From: a virus
Taxonomy: Duplodnaviria > Heunggongvirae > Uroviricota > Caudoviricetes
Direction: 5' to 3' (one strand)
DNA: 7,257 nucleotides
Virus record (IMG/VR): IMGVR_UViG_2609459831_000014
The notes below the pieces were generated by a model. The model did no database searches, was not told the DNA's origin, and saw nothing but the letters and a program-made list of their open reading frames with translations. Below are positions 1-7,257 of this stretch, one piece after another. The translations under genes were made by a program, and so were the position numbers. The first letter of the stretch is position 1, and the number at the start of each line of letters is the position of its first letter.

Positions 1-7
1 AAGAAAT

Positions 8-40
8 AGGGCTTCCACCTGGGAAGCCCTTTCTTTTTAT
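8..40. terminator. GC-rich hairpin (stem 8-16 / 22-30, loop ACCTG) followed by TTCTTTTTAT on the + strand; intrinsic-terminator-like, possibly bidirectional
   Basis: Seen directly: AGGGCTTCC / GGAAGCCCT perfect 9-bp inverted repeat, T-run at 31-40 on +, A-rich tract before it. Would terminate a + strand gene ending left of the window and may also serve pspG on the minus strand. Confidence 0.5.
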
Positions 41-165
41 AGTTCGGCTGTATGTAGGGTACAGCACGATGAATCTGTTAGAGGCGCAATAGTGACAGAT
101 TTGATTATCAATTCCTATTTTGTTCTAAGGATAAAACCTTAGGTTGTGATCATCCGCACAATCCC

Positions 166-408
166 TTAGTAACGCCAGCGGTCATAACGCTGATATTTCG
201 GCACTTTTGGTGCTTTAATCGCCTTAATAACCCACACCACCGCAATCGCCAGTAGTAACCACGGCAGCAACTTAATCATCAATGCCAGCATACCGCCGAG
301 GAACATAATGGCCGTCGCCACAACCAGCGCGGCGATAATGCCCAGCAACGAAACGCCGGTGACCATCAGCATGACAAAAAAGCCAATCACAAAAAGTAGT
401 TCCAGCAT
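166..408 (-). CDS. pspG: Phage shock protein G (80 aa small inner-membrane protein)
   Basis: Product MLELLFVIGFFVMLMVTGVSLLGIIAALVVATAIMFLGGMLALMIKLLPWLLLAIAVVWVIKAIKAPKVPKYQRYDRWRY is strongly hydrophobic and matches PspG as I recall it. ATG at 406-408 is preceded by GGGAG at Shine-Dalgarno distance. It lies immediately downstream of dusA, the conserved E. coli arrangement. The 150-aa track ORF 166..618 is an over-extension running through the promoter into dusA. Confidence 0.85.
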   Translation of the reverse strand: MLELLFVIGFFVMLMVTGVSLLGIIAALVVATAIMFLGGMLALMIKLLPWLLLAIAVVWVIKAIKAPKVPKYQRYDRWRY

Positions 409-443
409 GATGCACTCCCAAATATGAAATCTCTTGCTGGCAT

Positions 444-459
444 TACAAGAATCATGCCA
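444..459 (-). promoter_or_regulatory. Candidate sigma54 (-24/-12) promoter for pspG
   Basis: Minus strand reads TGGCAT-GATTC-TTGTA, against the sigma54 consensus TGGCAC-N5-TTGCA (GG at -24, GT in place of GC at -12). It sits ~35-50 nt upstream of the pspG ATG. pspG is a known sigma54/PspF-dependent gene (established knowledge). Confidence 0.5.
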
Positions 460-463
460 AAAA

Positions 464-476
464 TAATCTATTGATT
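464..476 (-). promoter_or_regulatory. IHF-consensus-like site upstream of the candidate sigma54 promoter
   Basis: Minus strand AATCAATAGATTA fits WATCAANNNNTTR. IHF-assisted looping is typical of sigma54 promoters. Sequence match only. Confidence 0.35.
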
Positions 477-488
477 TAACAGCAAAAC

Positions 489-510
489 GCCCCGCGACGG
501 TGCGCAGGGC
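489..510 (-). terminator. Possible intrinsic terminator after dusA
   Basis: On the minus strand GCCCTGCG / CGCGGGGC form an imperfect 8-bp stem (one mismatch) with a 6-nt loop, followed by GTTTTGCT. It lies 30-50 nt past the dusA stop, before the pspG promoter. Confidence 0.35.
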
Positions 511-541
511 GTGGTGAATTTGACTATTTTTTGGTGAAAAG

Positions 542-1579
542 TTAACGCTTATCCGCCACCAGTTTGAGCGCGTGTTCCAGCACATTAATGTCTGCACCCG
601 CTTTATGGGCATTTTCACTTAAATAACGCCGCCACTGCCGCGCGCCAGGAATACCCTGGAACAAGCCCAACATATGCCGGGTAATATGACCGAGATACGT
701 CCCCTGGCTGAGTTCACGCTCAATGTACGGATACATGGCGCGCACTACCGCCACCGGATCGGCATCGATATCCGAGGAACCAAAGATCTCCCGGTCTACC
801 GCCGCCAGAATACCCGGATTCTGATACGCCTCGCGCCCGACCATCACGCCATCCATATGTTGCAGGTGTGCTTTGGCCTCTTCCAGCGACTTGATACCAC
901 CGTTAATCGACATTGTCAGATGCGGAAAGTCACGCTTCAGTTGATACACACGCGGATAATCGAGCGGCGGGATCTCACGGTTTTCTTTCGGACTTAACCC
1001 CGAAAGCCAGGCTTTACGTGCATGGATGATGAACATCTCACACTCGCCTTTGCCGGAAACGGTGTTGATGAAATCGCAGAGAAATTCATAGCTGTCCTGG
1101 TCGTCGATGCCAATACGCGTTTTCACCGTCACCGGAATCGACACCACATCGCGCATCGCTTTCACGCAGTCGGCAACCAGCTGCGCATTACCCATCAGAC
1201 ACGCACCAAACATGCCGTTCTGCACCCGGTCAGACGGGCAGCCGACATTCAGGTTGATCTCATCATATCCACGCGCTTCTGCCAGCTTCGCACACTGCGC
1301 CAGCGCCGCCGGATCGCTACCGCCGAGTTGCAACGCTACCGGATGTTCTTCTTCACTATACGCCAGGTAATCACCTTTACCGTGAATAATCGCCCCTGTA
1401 GTTACCATTTCAGTATACAGCAACGTATTGCGGGAAAGCAGACGCAAGAAATAGCGGCAATGTCTGTCCGTCCAGTCGAGCATAGGAGCAATGCTAAACC
1501 GAGAATTCCAGTAAACACCAGTTTTTTCAGGCATCACGCTGGTTTGATTAATTTTTTGTGTTTCATGATTATCGTGCAT
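542..1579 (-). CDS. dusA: tRNA-dihydrouridine synthase A (Dus family flavin oxidoreductase), 345 aa
   Basis: Full-length ORF with Dus-family hallmarks ([32 protein letters not shown]). ATG at 1577-1579, stop TAA 542-544. Alternative internal start at 1532-1534 (MPEKTG...) would give 330 aa. No clear SD before either start. pspG synteny supports the call. Confidence 0.9.
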
Positions 1580-1612
1580 TTTTGAACATTTCAGGCTATT
1601 TTTCTCGCGTTA

Positions 1613-1648
1613 GGTTCCCGCACAGGTTCCCACGTTTTATGGGAACCC
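1613..1648. repeat. GGTTCCC repeat cluster in the dusA-int divergent intergenic region: direct copies at 1613-1619 and 1626-1632, and a perfect 8-bp inverted repeat GGTTCCCA(1626-1633)-N7-TGGGAACC(1641-1648)
   Basis: Seen directly. It lies 20-55 nt upstream of the int start and 34-70 nt upstream of the dusA start, so it could be an operator, recombinase-binding sites or att-associated sequence. Confidence 0.5.
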
Positions 1649-1667
1649 GAAATAACGAGGTCGTGTA

Positions 1668-2765
1668 ATGGCGTACTATAACATAGAGAAACGACTAAAA
1701 TCCGATGGCACACCACGCTATCGCTGTAATGTGATTATCAAAGAAAAAGGTGTTATCACTTACAGGGAAAGCAAAACATTCCCTAAACATGCTCATGCCA
1801 AAACATGGGGCACACAGAAAGTGATGGAATTAGATCTATATGGCATTCCATCATCAAATGCAGTTGACGGACTTACAGTCCGTGACTTACTACACAAATA
1901 TTTAAATGACCCAAATGCCGGAGGTAAAGCAGGCCGTACTAAAAGATATGTGCTGGAACTGCTTATGGATAGTGACATCTCCGCGATCAAACTATCTGAA
2001 CTGACAGAAAATGACGTAATTGAACATTGCAGGCTAAGAAACAACGCTGGTGCAGGTCCAGCTACAGTTAGCCACGATGTTAGTTATCTTGGCAGTGTTC
2101 TGGATGCTGCCAAACCTGTATATGGAATTAATTACACATCAAACCCAGCAAAAGCCGCTCGTCCATATCTACTTAAACTTGGTTTAATTGGTAAATCAAA
2201 TCGTCGTAATCGTAGACCGGCATCTGATGAACTGGACATGCTCATTGAAGGTCTTCAACAACGATCTACACATAAATGCTCAAAAATTCCGTTCGTTGAT
2301 ATCCTCAAATTTTCTGTGTGGTCATGTATGCGAATCGGTGAAGTATGCCGATTACGATGGGAGGATCTCGATCAGGAACAAAAATCCATACTCGTAAGAG
2401 ACAGGAAAGATCCACGTAAAAAGGAAGGCAACCATATGAAAGTAGCCTTGCTTGGGGAAGCCTGGGATATCGTCCAACGACAACCCAAAAAATCAGAATT
2501 CATTTTTCCATATAACAGCACTTCTGTTACTGCGGGATTCCAGAGGGTAAGAAGCAAATTAGGTATTAAAGATCTGCGATACCATGATTTGCGTAGAGAA
2601 GGGGCAAGTCGCTTATTTGAGGCTGGTTTTAGTATTGAGGAAGTCGCCCAGGTTACAGGGCATCGTTCATTAAACGTGCTATGGCAGGTATATACCGAAC
2701 TGTATCCGAAATCTTTACATAATCGTTTTGAAGAGCTCCAAAGGAGCAGAAATAAGACCTCTTGA
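1668..2765 (+). CDS. int: Tyrosine site-specific integrase, 365 aa, candidate dusA-targeting family
   Basis: ATG 1668 preceded by GAGG (1657-1660). C-terminal catalytic region has the tyrosine-recombinase signature (RYHDLRREGASR with H-x-x-R, then GHRSLNVLWQVYTELY with candidate catalytic Tyr). Divergent from and adjacent to the dusA 5' end. By eye more AT-rich than the dusA/pspG flank. Confidence 0.9.
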   Translation: MAYYNIEKRLKSDGTPRYRCNVIIKEKGVITYRESKTFPKHAHAKTWGTQKVMELDLYGIPSSNAVDGLTVRDLLHKYLNDPNAGGKAGRTKRYVLELLMDSDISAIKLSELTENDVIEHCRLRNNAGAGPATVSHDVSYLGSVLDAAKPVYGINYTSNPAKAARPYLLKLGLIGKSNRRNRRPASDELDMLIEGLQQRSTHKCSKIPFVDILKFSVWSCMRIGEVCRLRWEDLDQEQKSILVRDRKDPRKKEGNHMKVALLGEAWDIVQRQPKKSEFIFPYNSTSVTAGFQRVRSKLGIKDLRYHDLRREGASRLFEAGFSIEEVAQVTGHRSLNVLWQVYTELYPKSLHNRFEELQRSRNKTS

Positions 2766-2767
2766 CA

Positions 2768-2783
2768 CTGTTTATCCATACAG
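2768..2783. promoter_or_regulatory. LexA box 1 (SOS operator), CTGT-N8-ACAG
   Basis: CTGTTTATCCATACAG matches the LexA core CTGT-N8-ACAG. It directly follows a perfect -35 hexamer TTGACA (2762-2767) that overlaps the int stop codon. A -10-like TAAAAA(T) lies at 2785-2791. Confidence 0.65.
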
Positions 2784-2795
2784 TTAAAAATAATG

Positions 2796-2811
2796 CTGTA
2801 TACAAACACAG
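2796..2811. promoter_or_regulatory. LexA box 2 (SOS operator), CTGT-N8-ACAG
   Basis: With flanks TGCTGTATACAAACACAGTA, a close match to the 20-bp consensus TACTGTATATATATACAGTA. Positioned over the predicted transcription start, 16 nt upstream of the dinI-like ATG. Confidence 0.75.
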
Positions 2812-2826
2812 TATAGAGGGACTTTT

Positions 2827-3075
2827 ATGCGTATTGAAATCTGCATAGCCAAAGAAAAAATGACTAAAATGCCAACCGGTGCTGTGGATGCGTTAAAGGA
2901 AGAATTAACCCGACGCATCAGTAAACGTTATGACGATGTAGAGGTGATCGTAAAAGCCACCAGCAACGATGGCCTTTCTGTTACACGCACCGCAGATAAG
3001 GATTCTGCAAAAACTTTTGTTCAGGAGACTCTGAAAGATACCTGGGAATCTGCTGACGAGTGGTTTGTTCACTAA
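2827..3075 (+). CDS. dinI: DinI-family damage-inducible protein (RecA modulator), 82 aa
   Basis: MRIE..IAK...P.GA.DAL..EL.RRI...LSV.....[16 protein letters not shown] follows the DinI pattern including the C-terminal TWESAD-WFV motif. SD AGAGGG 2815-2820. Two LexA boxes immediately upstream. Confidence 0.85.
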
Positions 3076-3141
3076 TTAACACGTAAAATCGGTAACGGCT
3101 GGAAATCATTCAATACTCGCACTATCGAAAGTTCGCCAGCC

Positions 3142-3179
3142 AGCCGCAGCACGTTCTTGCATACGACGTGGCTGCGGCT
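3142..3179. terminator. Interrupted 12-bp hairpin between convergent dinI-like and invertase genes; possible bidirectional terminator
   Basis: AGCCGCAGC(3142-3150)/GCTGCGGCT(3171-3179) plus ACG/CGT with a one-base bulge and 13-nt loop. No convincing U-tract on either strand, hence low confidence. Confidence 0.3.
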
Positions 3180-3218
3180 TCCAACATTAGACAAATAACT
3201 CTTTAAATTGCTTTTAAA

Positions 3219-3782
3219 TTATTTCGTTTGAATGCCAGTAACAGGAAATCGTTTATATAGGGTTGATAGCCCAACGTTATAGATACGTGCAACATAACGC
3301 CGTGATTTCCCTGCCGCTATGAGCGCTCCCATCTGTTGCCACTGCTCGTCGCTAAACTTCGGTCTACGCCCACCAATCCGGCCTTTGGATCTGGCAATAG
3401 CCAAACCAGCTAAAGTTCGCTCGCTATTCAAATCAGATTCATACTGCGCAGCAGAAAGAATATTACGGAAATTATAGCGACCACTTGCTGTTTTCAGGTC
3501 TACGCCATCTGTAATACTCCGAAAATTAACACCTTTTTCGTGCAGATTTTGAAACATCAATAGCGCATGCAGCACATTTCTCCCTATCCGATCTAACTTC
3601 CAGACAATCAACTCATCTCCACTTTTCATCACCGTAATTAATTCCTTTAACACAGGGCGATTAGCTGTTCTGCCACTGGCATATTCTTCATAAATTCGCT
3701 CACAGCCAGCTGACTCAAGTGCAAGACGTTGCAACTCTGTATCCTGATGATTTGTTGATACACGAACATACCCGTAAATCAT
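3219..3782 (-). CDS. pin: Serine recombinase / DNA invertase of the Pin-Gin-Hin-Cin family, 187 aa
   Basis: N-terminus MIYGYVRVSTNHQ carries the catalytic Ser in the YVRVST motif; VWKLDRIGR and a C-terminal helix-turn-helix region (GRIGGRRPK ... STLYKR) are present. Length is typical for this family. Adjacent to an invertible tail-fibre segment. Confidence 0.9.
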   Translation of the reverse strand: MIYGYVRVSTNHQDTELQRLALESAGCERIYEEYASGRTANRPVLKELITVMKSGDELIVWKLDRIGRNVLHALLMFQNLHEKGVNFRSITDGVDLKTASGRYNFRNILSAAQYESDLNSERTLAGLAIARSKGRIGGRRPKFSDEQWQQMGALIAAGKSRRYVARIYNVGLSTLYKRFPVTGIQTK

Positions 3783-3787
3783 GAGTG

Positions 3788-3814
3788 CTTCTCCTGTTGT
3801 AAAAACAGGAGAAG
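3788..3814 (-). promoter_or_regulatory. Perfect 11-bp stem-loop sequestering the invertase Shine-Dalgarno
   Basis: CTTCTCCTGTT(3788-3798) and AACAGGAGAAG(3804-3814) with a 5-nt loop. On the minus-strand mRNA the 3' arm AACAGGAGAAG holds the SD AGGAG, 8 nt before the pin AUG. No U-tract follows, so it is not a terminator. Confidence 0.5.
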
Positions 3815-3850
3815 AGGCGAAATATCACCTGATTCAGAAAAATATTTGAA
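3815..3850 (-). promoter_or_regulatory. Candidate sigma70 promoter for pin
   Basis: Minus strand TTCAAA (fwd 3845-3850) - 17 nt - GATATT (fwd 3821-3826). The -35 overlaps the outer half of the left crossover site. Weak match. Confidence 0.25.
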
Positions 3851-3867
3851 AGGTTGGTTTGGGAGAA
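3842..3867. other. Invertase crossover site, left (gix/hix-like 12+2+12)
   Basis: ATATTTGAAAGG-TT-GGTTTGGGAGAA. The inner half GGTTTGGGAGA is identical, in inverted orientation, to the inner half of the site at 5930-5955. AAACC/GGTTT arms flanking a central dinucleotide resemble Gin/Hin-type sites. Confidence 0.5.
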
Positions 3868-4356
3868 GACTCTGCATTACCTGTTGGGGTGCCTGTTCCG
3901 TGGCCTTCAGCCACTCCGCCTACAGGCTGGCTGAAATGCAATGGTGCAGCTTTTTCTGCTGAAGAATACCCGGAACTGGTAAAGGCTTATCCGACAAATA
4001 AATTGCCTGATTTACGTGGTGAGTTTATTCGTGGCTGGGATGATGGGCGTGGTATTGATGCTGGACGTGCCTTGCTAAGTCTTCAGAATGGAGGAGTGGA
4101 ATCACACACCCACCAGGGACAGCTCTTCAGAGTCAGTGATTATCGTACAAAAGAAATACCAGCATCAGAAGTTATGGGAAGAGGATATATTGCAAGCCTG
4201 ACGCCGGGTGCTGATAGCCCACTTGATTTTGATGATTATTCTGTATCCTCTAATCCAAATGGATATTTTGTCGGGAATCAGAGAACAACAGCATATGGGG
4301 TAAATGAAACCCGCCCACGGAATATTGCATTTAACTATATCGTGAGGGCTGCATAA
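3850..4356 (+). CDS. Silent alternative tail-fibre C-terminal cassette (Sv'-like), promoterless with no own start codon; ~168 codons
   Basis: Frame opens right after TGA at 3847-3849. The track start at 3859 is TTG, an in-frame Leu within K-V-G-L-G-E-D. Product (PVGVPVPWPSATPPTGWLKCNGAAFSAEEYPEL...GEFIRGWDDGRG) is a typical variable tail-fibre C-terminal domain. Stop TAA 4354-4356 overlaps the next ATG (TAATG). Confidence 0.75.
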   Translation, partial: KVGLGEDSALPVGVPVPWPSATPPTGWLKCNGAAFSAEEYPELVKAYPTNKLPDLRGEFIRGWDDGRGIDAGRALLSLQNGGVESHTHQGQLFRVSDYRTKEIPASEVMGRGYIASLTPGADSPLDFDDYSVSSNPNGYFVGNQRTTAYGVNETRPRNIAFNYIVRAA

Positions 4357-4958
4357 TGGATAACGCTGTATTAAATAGCGAGCTTATTGCCACGAAGGCG
4401 GGAAATATTCCTGTCTATAACTATGATGGTGAAACACGGGAATATATTTCCACTTCAAATGAATATCTTTCCGTTGGTGTCGGCATTCCGGCATGTTCCT
4501 GTTTAGATGCCCCTGGCACACATAAGGCTGGTTATGCAATCTGCCGTTCTACAGATTTTAACTCATGGGAATATGTGCCAGATCATCGCGGTGAAATCGT
4601 CTATAACACCGAAACGGGAGATGCCAAAGAAATCACAGCTCCGGGTGATTACCCTGAAAATACAACCACTATCGCACCGTTAACGCCATACGATAAATGG
4701 GATGGTGAGAAATGGGTGACAGATACTGAGGCACAACACGGTGCCGCAGTAGAAGTGGCAGAAGCACAACGCCAGTCACTGATTGATGCAGCAATGGCTT
4801 CCATTAGTCTGATTCAGCTGAAATTGCAGGCCGGGCGGAAGCTGATGCAGGCAGAAACCACCCGACTTAACATTGTGCTGGATTACATTGACGCGGTGAC
4901 GGCAACAGATACCAGCACCGCGCCGGATGTCATCTGGCCTGAACTGCCGGAGGCGTAG
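4356..4958 (+). CDS. Tail fibre assembly protein (Tfa/U'-like chaperone), 200 aa, silent orientation
   Basis: ATG 4356 with SD GAGGG (4344-4348), translationally coupled to the upstream cassette. C-terminus ...DTSTAPDVIWPELPEA carries the conserved Tfa terminal motif. Confidence 0.8.
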   Translation: MDNAVLNSELIATKAGNIPVYNYDGETREYISTSNEYLSVGVGIPACSCLDAPGTHKAGYAICRSTDFNSWEYVPDHRGEIVYNTETGDAKEITAPGDYPENTTTIAPLTPYDKWDGEKWVTDTEAQHGAAVEVAEAQRQSLIDAAMASISLIQLKLQAGRKLMQAETTRLNIVLDYIDAVTATDTSTAPDVIWPELPEA

Positions 4959-5367
4959 GCCATTCAATATCTGGCACACTGGAGGTATCAACCAGCTCCA
5001 GTGCGTCCAGATAATCCAGCCACGAATTATATTGCGCCAGTTCCTCGCCTTTCAGACGACCAATAGCGGCTTTACCGGGCCATTGTTTACTGTTCATGTA
5101 TTCGTTGGCCTGATTAATTAATAGCTGTCTTTTTGACTCAGAAATTTCAATAAGTTCTTCATGCGTGGGTGAAGGAATATCTGCCCACGCAGGCATTCCG
5201 TCTGCACCTGCAATACGTCGCTTACCCTGCGGAGGTGTCGCCATAAACGACTCGGCACGTCGGGTTTCAATATCTTTTGCATCATCAGGCCATGTGCCGG
5301 AATCGCGGTATACGGCCTCATTACCAGCCAGATAAAACGCATTTTTTTTAGCACTGTATTTGTACAT
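4930..5367 (-). CDS. Tail fibre assembly protein (Tfa/U-like chaperone), 145 aa, expressed orientation
   Basis: ATG 5365-5367 lies 1 nt after the tail-fibre stop, with a GGGA-type SD inside the fibre 3' end. C-terminus ...DTSSVPDIEWPTPPAVQAR carries the Tfa motif. Its 3' end overlaps the convergent tfa' by 29 nt. Confidence 0.8.
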   Translation of the reverse strand: MYKYSAKKNAFYLAGNEAVYRDSGTWPDDAKDIETRRAESFMATPPQGKRRIAGADGMPAWADIPSPTHEELIEISESKRQLLINQANEYMNSKQWPGKAAIGRLKGEELAQYNSWLDYLDALELVDTSSVPDIEWPTPPAVQAR

Positions 5368-5368
5368 A

Positions 5369-6232
5369 TTATTTCCCTACCGCAATCCAGAAAAATGAAC
5401 TCATGCTGGCTACTGGTGCTCCGCCCGCTGTTGGAATCATCAGATTTCGGACGCCGCATCCTAAATTAGTTATCGTTGGCGCTGAAATTACTGGCGACTG
5501 AACTACGTTAGGAAGCGATACCTGCTGAGGACCAAATCCCACATACATCGGGTATGCAGAGAACGCGACAGGAAACGTAATAAAGATCTCTCCAGTTGAT
5601 GATGGATTGGCTGTCCCCCACTGAATAATCAGACCTGACGGTAATTTTTGCCAGCCAGGGCTGGTCAGGCTGGATGTGAAGTCATTCATATCCGGAATCT
5701 GATTTGCCCCTGAGCCAACATCCCTTTGAGCCGCACTTTTCAGATCAAGATAAGTTCTTAGTTCAGCCTTATCCTTACCGCTTAAATCTGTCAGTGTCTG
5801 GTCTTTTGGTTGCGCATAGTCTTTTGTTGCCAGACGAACTACTGTATTTGTTCTGGCGAATCGCATATACGGGGCATTGACGTTACTACTGTCAAACCCT
5901 GCAATTTTACATTCATCACCAATTAATGCATCTCCCAAACCAAGGTTTTCGAGAGCCGTTTTCACCGTGCCATCCGATTTGATATCGCCAAACGGATTCT
6001 TGCGGCTTAACAGCAGCGCACGAAGCGCGGTAAGCAACTGGTCGTGCCGCGCCTTCTCCAGGCTGGCACCGGATGCCTCCACCACGCTGCAGAGTTCTTC
6101 CTGCAACATATCAAAGTAGTCATCATCCAGATCGGTGGCAGGTGTGCCGGTCTGGGGGTTACCACGGGTAAAACCGTTCTTCCCCGCGCCGAACTTATCC
6201 TTCTGCGCGGTTTTCGTGTCTATACGATGCAT
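5369..6232 (-). CDS. Phage tail fibre protein, 287 aa: constant N-terminal part (6232 to ~5944) plus variable C-terminal part (5943 to 5369)
   Basis: ATG 6230-6232 with SD GGAG 7 nt upstream, starting 3 nt after the stop of the upstream tail gene. The crossover site lies inside the gene at codons ...ENLGLGD.... Size and position match an e14 StfP / Mu S-like fibre (from memory). Confidence 0.85.
5930..5955. other. Invertase crossover site, right (inside the tail fibre gene)
   Basis: ATCTCCCAAACC-AA-GGTTTTCGAGAG, an imperfect dyad. Its inner half is the reverse complement of GGTTTGGGAGA at 3856-3866. Confidence 0.5.
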
Positions 6233-6235
6233 GGA

Positions 6236-6820
6236 TTACTCCGGATATTTAAAAATCACATAGGTATGCGACGGGCAGAGTTTGTTAAGAACACACTCGA
6301 CAACGGTGTCGCCCCAGATACGCAGGGCAGAATCACAGGGATCGCCACATGTCATCCAGGTGGTGTTGGTGGCGGCTGGCATGTTGATCTGCCAGTAATA
6401 CCGCCATTCCGGCGCATTCACCGCGTCAGTACAGGCCGATGAGCAGGTGAAGGTGCTTTTGTCGTATCGCGTGATGGTGGCATCTGGCCTGCCCAGGGCA
6501 GCAAGCTGTGCAAGATAAAAATCCTCGTTGATGCCGCCCGCCAGGTTAACCTTCGCATCCAGCCGTTGCTGACGCTGGCGAAGAGTCTGCGTTCCCGCCG
6601 GAATACATTCATCCGGCAGACCGCACAGACGCTCCCAGCGGTTTATCAGTTCAGTGGTGGTGCGCGGATCCAGCTCCCGCATCAGGGCATCCGCACGCTG
6701 ATGAACGCGGGTTAATGACGGTGCCGCACCGGCAATCGCCGGATCTCTGGCTGACCACGCCGGACCGGGTGGCAACAGTGCCGACAACAGACGGATGTAA
6801 TCATCGTTTGTCACGTCCAT
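6236..6820 (-). CDS. Phage tail/baseplate protein, 194 aa (Mu gp48 / e14 YmfQ-like by position and size)
   Basis: ATG 6818-6820 and stop TAA 6236-6238, 3 nt before the tail fibre start. Its start overlaps the stop of the upstream gene by 10 nt (ATGGACGTGA). Product assignment rests on synteny and size, not on a recognised motif. Confidence 0.7.
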
Positions 6821-7257
6821 GAAATCGTCCCCAGAACCGCCAGTTCATTTTTCGCAATGGAGATATTGTCTGCCGGTGCAAGCAACTGATGGCTATATTC
6901 CCCGTTCGCACCGGAAATCGCCTCACTGATACGCGATACCTTCAGTTCTCCCTGCGGATAACCATCACGCAGAAGAAACGAACGCAACTCCGCGGTGATG
7001 GCGGCTCGTATTTCTGGTGTGTCCGGCGTCACGCGGATATGAAAATCCACCGTATGTGCCACCGGCCTGAATACATACAAATCAGAGCCTGCCACCGGGG
7101 CCAGTGGCACGATATGTTGTCTTGCTGCCGTTTCCGTTGATTCTTCCGGAATGGGATTAATCAGGTCACTGCTGGCAATCATCACACCGACAGTTCCCGT
7201 TCCCATCCAGTGACGGTATGTCCATGCGCGGGTAATGCCGGGCACTTCTTTAGCCCA
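6811..7257 (-). CDS. Phage baseplate protein, C-terminal part only (baseplate J-like by synteny); 5' end lies beyond the window
   Basis: Minus-strand frame is open to the window edge: codons upstream of the track start (GTG at 7243-7245) read W-A-K-E with no stop. Stop TGA 6811-6813 overlaps the next gene start. Family assignment is inferred from the gp47-gp48-S order of Mu-like tail modules. Confidence 0.65.

Follow-up and report, generated by a model that had tools for sequence, protein, structure and literature searches.

In the 7,257-bp stretch of DNA analyzed here (IMG/VR record IMGVR_UViG_2609459831_000014; the whole stretch is called the window), an integrase gene points away from the 5' end of dusA. 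This raises the question of where host DNA ends and the element begins, and whether the 5' end of dusA belongs to the host or to the element. An integrase starting 88 bp from the dusA start codon on the opposite strand, with phage tail genes beyond it, had been taken to mark an element abutting dusA, and all of these features were found where they had been placed. The window is E. coli chromosome over its whole length. The dusA gene (542-1579, minus strand; 345 amino acids in the list of open reading frames [ORFs]; Pfam Dus, E=2e-104; NCBIfam DusA TIGR00742, 580 bits) and the gene for an intact tyrosine integrase (Int) of 365 amino acids (1668-2765, plus strand; Pfam Phage_integrase PF00589, E=1e-20) are divergent, and the gap between them is exactly 88 bp (1580-1667). 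We conclude with high confidence that the window holds attL, the int-proximal attachment (att) junction formed where a temperate phage has integrated into E. coli dusA.

The element boundary lies inside dusA

We aligned the window with the unoccupied K-12-type strains RP437 and CUVM53, the unoccupied B2-like strain OZ121081, and the lysogen 23CRST025 and then counted identities. Over 1150-1483, the window and the unoccupied strain CUVM53 are identical at 334 of 334 positions. Over 1484-1579, which corresponds to dusA codons 1 to 32, the identity drops to 78/96, and over 1580-1667 the comparison is essentially random, with no homology. The lysogen, in contrast, matches the window at 96/96 and 88/88 positions over the latter two segments. 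Thus, the element starts at base 1483 or directly behind it, inside dusA rather than between the two genes. Alignment to an unoccupied allele was the check that the original prediction had proposed, and its suggestion that the first dusA codons and the spacer are element derived held in full: both are also carried by the free phage mEp460. The G+C content is 0.54 to 0.57 inside dusA and 0.40 to 0.44 from about position 1500 onward.

The dusA part of the window was matched in all 5,426 complete E. coli genomes, and the dusA/integrase junction as it stands in the window was present in 740 of them, counted at a threshold of at least 80% coverage of a 651-bp junction query. The junction is therefore real and recurs across strains.

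DusA as annotated is a chimera of host and phage sequence. Its host-derived part is nucleotides (nt) 105 to 1038 of the coding sequence (CDS; 542-1475, minus strand), as seen from the identity to CUVM53 over the aligned stretch (1150-1483) and from the Pfam and NCBIfam matches, and the element-borne codons 1 to 32 (1484-1579, minus strand) are in frame with it, so the chimeric ORF is uninterrupted over its 345 codons. A second in-frame ATG lies at codon 16 (MPEKT...; region 1535-1579), neither this ATG nor that of codon 1 has an evident Shine-Dalgarno sequence, and the NCBIfam DusA profiles start matching at residues 19 to 27. The start of the chimeric DusA is therefore uncertain.

To define the crossover, we compared attL (the window), attP (the free phage mEp460), attR (the lysogen 23CRST025), and attB (K-12). 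Written in the dusA sense, attL reads ...GCATTGCTCCTATGCTCGA followed by CTGGACGGACAG, attP reads ...GCATTGCTCCTATGCTCGA followed by TAGGATGTACCG, attR reads ...GCGTTGCACCAATGCTCGA followed by TAGGATGTATCG, and attB reads ...GCGTTGCACCAATGCTCGA followed by CTGGACGGACAG. The 8-bp core ATGCTCGA is the only stretch identical across all four sites, and diagnostic mismatches stand on its flanks. Therefore, strand exchange is confined to these 8 bp. The core occupies window positions 1476-1483 (minus strand), which are nt 97 to 104 of the dusA CDS, in the codons for Met-Leu-Asp. An attL within or just inside the dusA 5' end had been expected, and the coordinate from which the feature had been drawn, 1480, falls within the core. 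Around it lies a semi-conserved 21-bp attL repeat, TTGCTCCTATGCTCGACTGGA (dusA sense; 1471-1491, minus strand), whose counterpart at attR of 23CRST025 is TTGCACCAATGCTCGATAGGA. Size and position of this repeat agree with the att motif in two published accounts (PMC4482086 and PMC6328086). The GenBank record of the Stx2 phage Phi1720a-02 begins exactly at the ATGCTCGA core.

The matching att copy had been predicted beyond the window, at the opposite end of the element, and in 23CRST025, the closest lysogen, we found the second repeat of about 21 bp roughly 38 kb away. The prophage of this strain fills those ~38 kb. One of its ends is the dusA junction; the other is a pseudogene of 105 bp, annotated "tRNA-dihydrouridine synthase, missing C-terminus," which adjoins a DUF2713 (yjbLM) pseudogene and zur. 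The sequence of the 105-bp pseudogene is that of a K-12-type dusA 5' end and passes into phage DNA right after the core. In mEp460, the identical 88-bp spacer, the 96-bp dusA-like stretch, and the core are contiguous with int and are followed by the same DNA as that after the attR core. These comparisons establish the breakpoint and the four att sites. The attR of the window element itself would carry a second core, with the displaced dusA 5' fragment before it and TAGGATGTA... after it.

In the free phage, attP spans about 260 bp in the order int, the 88-bp control region with three short repeats, the 96-bp dusA imitation, the core, and a P' arm with two repeats. As the sequences compared here and the published work cited below show, Int-mediated strand exchange within the core, in the conserved dusA codons Met-Leu-Asp, places the phage at dusA codon 32/33, ahead of the remaining part of the gene. 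Integration displaces the first 32 host codons and the host promoter to the far prophage end (attR). The remaining host codons are joined to the 32 phage-borne codons and the DNA upstream of them, so that full-length DusA can still be made. The phage-borne 5' end preserves the beta-1 strand RFSIAPML, to which Farrugia et al. (PMC4482086) drew attention. Excision would require, besides Int, the directionality factor RdfN, a PrtN-like protein whose gene would lie close to attR and beyond the window.

The integrase and its control region

We asked whether Int belongs to a family that targets dusA. Window Int is 98.4% identical to Int of mEp460 and, over 93 to 94% of its length, 36.2% identical to that of BcepIL02, 34.5% to that of BcepMigl (both Burkholderia phages), and 34.8% to that of the Pseudomonas phage H66. 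Farrugia et al. (2015; PMC4482086) name the integrases of all four phages as homologues of the dusA-associated integrase (DAI) family. From Phi1720a-02 Int, the protein differs by one residue, S365P, and over window positions 1475-2759 the two phages differ by 1 nt. Thus, comparison with known dusA-associated integrases places Int in the dusA-targeting family, as had been supposed. Alignment to XerA (5hxy) identifies the catalytic residues as R222, H306, R309, H332, and Y342, and in 30 homologues each residue of this R, H, R, H, Y set is either invariant or conserved to at least 90%. The Int protein also recovered 52 loci of other species; in about 33 of these, dusA is on the opposite strand, in most cases starting ~88 to 90 bp upstream of int. 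The DusA alignment in those loci begins at residue 1 of the 345-amino-acid form in most and as late as residue 27 in the most distant. Family membership and the conservation of the arrangement are direct observations.

Domain annotation of Int is generic. No NCBIfam model reached its cutoff and no specific DAI model was found there; the only matches were subthreshold ones to Xer and integron models. Rci shufflon recombinases may be the closest characterized relatives of the DAI family: the mEp460 record annotates its Int as INT_Rci (cd00796), and weaker phage matches to window Int, at ~26% identity, are annotated as shufflon-specific recombinases. The AlphaFold model (mean pLDDT, 84.7) has a three-stranded sheet plus helix at the N terminus (residues 2 to 58; block-mean pLDDT, ~78 to 93), ahead of the core-binding and catalytic domains, and in a Foldseek comparison full-length lambda Int aligned to the model over 362 to 371 columns. 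On this structural model, window Int would be a heterobivalent tyrosine recombinase of the DAI family with a predicted arm-binding domain.

The divergent 88-bp control region (1580-1667) is element derived and constitutes the P arm of attP. It contains three GGGAACC repeats, at 1613-1619 (minus strand), 1625-1631 (minus strand), and 1641-1647 (plus strand), and the motif occurs nowhere else in the window. This layout, a direct pair 12 bp apart and a third copy in inverted orientation, was found in 28 of 51 related spacers, compared with 21 of 2,000 shuffles. At least six different repeat motifs occur among the related spacers, each consistent within its own element. On the P' arm of free phages, two further copies of the motif of the element lie ~45 to 65 bp beyond the core: GGGAGCC/GGGAACC in mEp460 and GGGGTGCT, twice, in YeP3. 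Repeats of this kind lie at ~2255-2285 in the mEp460 locus extract and at ~1245-1270 and 1445-1480 in that of YeP3. A motif that varies between elements and is consistent within each is what is expected of arm-type integrase sites. We infer that the GGGAACC repeats are candidate arm-type Int sites, at which binding is predicted. If they are, the P arm would double as coding sequence.

A TATTTT box at 1597-1602 is conserved across genera and lies 17 bp from a conserved GTGCAT (1574-1579). The box may be the int promoter, a -10 element for dusA on the other strand, or both, and the positions suggested for the dusA and int promoters are accordingly putative. Relatives of Int at ~60% identity in Xenorhabdus, Serratia, and Pseudomonas lundensis retain both boxes, TATTTT and GTGCAT, as well as the two direct repeats. 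Instead of dusA, their divergent neighbors are the 5' ends of other genes, among them an srmB-like helicase gene, pgl, upp, and pyrD, which suggests a subclade with changed target specificity.

The integration module has close precedents. Phi1720a-02 integrates 100 bp into dusA, with a 21-bp junction motif that has a fully conserved 7-base core, and its ORF PhidusA' is fused in frame to the remaining dusA; deletion of int caused an excision defect, and attP was regenerated in vivo (Balasubramanian et al. 2019; PMC6328086). This Stx2dact phage (KF030445) agrees with the window in its core, in the dusA 5' end that it carries, in the spacer of 88 bp, and in having a dinI-like gene next to the module. 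By analogy with this near-identical module, the window element, itself fused in frame to dusA, would likewise integrate and excise, and this particular copy is presumably active. The DAI family and dusA islands described previously (PMC4482086) share with the window a tyrosine recombinase with the RHRH/Y residues that is divergent from dusA, a semi-conserved att repeat of 21 bp within the 5' part of dusA (in the window, the attL copy), and an element-supplied 5' end that includes the beta-1 strand. We see no difference of substance from the window; the named phage homologues outside E. coli are ~35% identical, and our comparison covered these rather than the tested Acinetobacter and Pseudomonas members.

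IMEVchUSA3 also targets the dusA 5' end but is an SGI1-like mobilizable island and not a phage. For this dusA-specific element, a new promoter and an ORF restored with an altered N terminus were shown experimentally, and its directionality factor was found to be the PrtN-like RdfN (Durand et al. 2021; PMC8409611). The 23CRST025 prophage, at its attR end, and mEp460 both have genes of the PrtN family, and an rdfN of the IMEVchUSA3 type would fall outside the window. As in lambda, Int is a three-domain protein (here by prediction) and short repeats lie on both arms of an attP of ~260 bp. Unlike lambda, the P arm here includes a 96-bp coding imitation of the target gene, and the Int sites are candidates only.

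Alternative readings and the surroundings of the module

Could the boundary instead lie in the 88-bp intergenic region, with all of dusA, including its 5' end, being native host DNA? K-12-type unoccupied strains do align with the window to base 1582, past the start codon at 1579, at 92 to 95% overall identity. However, all 18 mismatches fall in 1484-1579 and none in the preceding 334 bases, the 96-bp segment is carried by free mEp460 itself, and the displaced native 5' end is kept at attR in the lysogen. That 81% identity nevertheless remains there is accounted for by the element-type character of the K-12 allele itself (see below). The mEp460 attP alignment and the mismatch count refute a native 5' end, which we regard as having hardly any probability left. 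We give just as little credence to the idea that Int belongs to a family with another target and stands beside dusA by coincidence. The relatives beside srmB-like, pgl, upp, and pyrD genes and the generic annotation of Int would fit that idea, but the junction is common to 740 E. coli genomes, dusA is equally placed in about 33 of the 52 loci across genera, and Int is near identical to integrases with experimentally proven dusA integration. This last point refutes a different target for window Int.

Several observations weigh against an integrated temperate phage at this site. The attR of the element is outside the window, and the best coverage of the window by any complete genome is 87%; therefore, this copy, of which the window shows 5.8 kb, may be incomplete or immobile. 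In strain 730V1, the dusA/int/dinI junction, 100% identical over window positions 1250-1900, is attached beyond dinI to a different island, which is riddled with insertion sequences (IS) and is not a phage (NZ_CP061764.1, 4558500-4608400), so the junction alone is no proof of an intact prophage; attR was accordingly located with 23CRST025 and not with 730V1. A scan of 1400-1800 for sigma-70 promoter and terminator consensus sequences found nothing; we therefore claim no promoter and treat the TATTTT and GTGCAT boxes as candidates only. The 87% limit on coverage and the 730V1 island, together with the report that genomic islands or phage remnants make up 46 of the 94 dusA islands (Farrugia 2015; PMC4482086) and with a Salmonella enterica subsp. 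diarizonae locus that retains only 30 int codons, would favor a decayed, immobile prophage remnant in which the int-attL end persisted. Such a remnant agrees with a phage integrated in dusA as to origin and departs from it only as to present activity. Int is nevertheless full length with all of its catalytic residues, the tail genes within the window are intact ORFs, and the closest architecture, that of 23CRST025, is a complete-looking prophage. We therefore consider a remnant rather unlikely, though deserving of some weight, and prefer the attL of an integrated temperate phage.

Strain 23CRST025 is 99.6% identical to the window over 1-4059, with lower identity and rearrangement across the fiber cassette, and its prophage continues with tail, head, terminase, lysis, and regulatory genes. 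Besides a group II intron, the 730V1 island carries McrBC and type II Zorya genes.

Beyond int, the window continues with a DinI-like gene (2827-3075, plus strand; Pfam DinI, E=1e-19; PHROG 189). A DinI-like gene is in the equal position in mEp460, Phi1720a-02, and Serratia elements and travels with the int module. The int-dinI module has 97 to 99% nt identity with the lambdoid phages mEp460 and Phi1720a-02, and the similarity ends near 3073-3177; with Phi1720a-02, identity decays from ~2950 and ends near 3073. A mosaic joint thus lies at ~2950-3180, and the DNA beyond it is the tail module of a Mu/P2-like myovirus, as in 23CRST025. The lambdoid Stx2 phage Phi1720a-02 and mEp460 (NC_019716), a lambda-like siphovirus with a lambda-type tail fiber, differ in this from the window element with its Mu/P2-like contractile-tail module and invertible fiber cassette; mEp460 nevertheless has a contiguous attP with the dusA-like 5' end and arm repeats of the window. 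Because the module occurs in lambdoid, Mu/P2-like, and IS-rich island contexts, it moves between very different elements.

The remaining prophage part of the window (3219-7257) holds, by Pfam matches, a Pin/Gin-type serine invertase (3219-3782), a tail-collar fiber fragment (3859-4356), two tail-fiber assembly genes (4356-4958 and 4930-5367), a gp53-like fiber (5369-6232), and a Mu Gp48/YmfQ protein (6236-6820), and it ends in the start of a baseplate J gene. Inverted repeats of 18 nt (3849-3866 and 5931-5948) bound a segment of ~2.1 kb adjoining the invertase, which contains alternative tail-fiber C termini and two opposed tail-fiber assembly genes. Like Mu G or e14 P, this invertible segment is a cassette for switching host range. 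There is no stx among the genes within the window. On the other side of dusA lies pspG (166-408, minus strand).

The 5' end of K-12 dusA

Each complete E. coli genome carries exactly one of two native dusA 5' ends. The B2 type, found in 1,123 genomes, is a 133-bp segment; dusA, encoding 331 amino acids, then lies directly beside zur. The K-12 type, found in the other 4,303 of the 5,426 (79%), gives a DusA of 345 amino acids, MHGNSEMQKINQTSAMPEKTDVHWSGRFSVAPMLDW. The two alleles diverge exactly at the att core, with 1,686 bp including yjbLM in K-12 against the 133 bp of B2. The allele segments lie at 3234-3480 and 3243-4928 in the RP437 locus extract and at 4243-4375 in that of OZ121081, corresponding to window positions 1484-1579.

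Across the Enterobacterales, DusA proteins of a short class, whose forms are typical of their species, have 10 to 18 residues before PMLDW (Klebsiella, Enterobacter, Salmonella enterica, Atlantibacter, Cronobacter, and Serratia), and those of a long class have a fixed 31 residues, mostly starting MHxN. The long form is the one beside DAI integrases, as confirmed in Erwinia pyrifoliae and Serratia liquefaciens; Klebsiella oxytoca has the short form in the order zur-cupin-dusA, with no integrase. The K-12 allele falls in the long class and has 83 to 86% nt identity to the element-borne 5' ends of the window, Kosakonia, Phytobacter, and the S. enterica subsp. diarizonae relic. That relic (locus extract 3800-4100) has an element-type dusA 5' end, decayed arm repeats, and only the first 30 int codons. 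The DusA of Salmonella bongori (339 amino acids, MVKTHQTS...) may be a similar relic.

We lean toward the view that the K-12-type dusA 5' end is a fossil attL of an older DAI element, and that the co-varying repeats are undescribed DAI arm-type sites. On insertion, an older DAI element would have put its own 5' end in place of the short ancestral one, still present in the remaining 1,123 genomes. It would then have lost int, its cargo, and attR, fixing a phage-derived 31-residue DusA N terminus together with a promoter and the yjbLM segment. Present-day phages such as that of the window would re-use the core surviving in the fossil.

We searched K-12 for traces of such an element. In K-12 DNA upstream of dusA, tblastn with window Int plus the proteins from two protein searches (homologues of Int, about 120) returned no significant remnant at the protein level (best Int E value, ~0.03). 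A short and weak nt resemblance to the int start codons stands at the expected distance, about 76 to 98 bp before the start of K-12 dusA, with a best E value of 0.001 before correction for 15 queries. By blastn, K-12 has no displaced dusA 5' end of the B2 type, which rejects an intact relic with both att sites; on the fossil reading, the attR side must therefore have been deleted. The opposite course of events, in which phages captured a K-12-like 5' end from the host, is less parsimonious, because the long class is element linked in many genera and hosts without int carry short forms. A fossil attL thus remains our preferred explanation for the K-12 allele. Both alleles serve as attB today: a query with a chimeric attR showed that occupied B2-type sites exist, and we rejected the notion that B2-type strains are not lysogenizable.

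The finding at this locus is correct but already known, since a near-identical integration module has been studied experimentally. Any new parts might be limited to the fossil attL and the co-varying arm repeats. Farrugia 2015 (PMC4482086) mentions neither arm sites nor a fossil attL, and of six papers found to name dusA with yjbL or yjbM, none was on the fossil-attL subject as judged by title and abstract. The fossil attL may therefore be new, as may the co-varying repeats on both att arms.

The core at 1476-1483 fixes the exact left boundary of the prophage. The integration module is the one used by Stx2 phages such as Phi1720a-02, and several papers on Shiga toxin-producing E. coli list dusA as an Stx-phage integration site; occupancy of dusA thus affects lysogenization of a strain by these phages. 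The co-varying repeats give direct access to the assembly of DAI integrases on attP. If most E. coli strains, including K-12, do carry a phage-derived DusA N terminus and promoter, work on the expression and the debated start codon of K-12 DusA would concern a chimeric gene.

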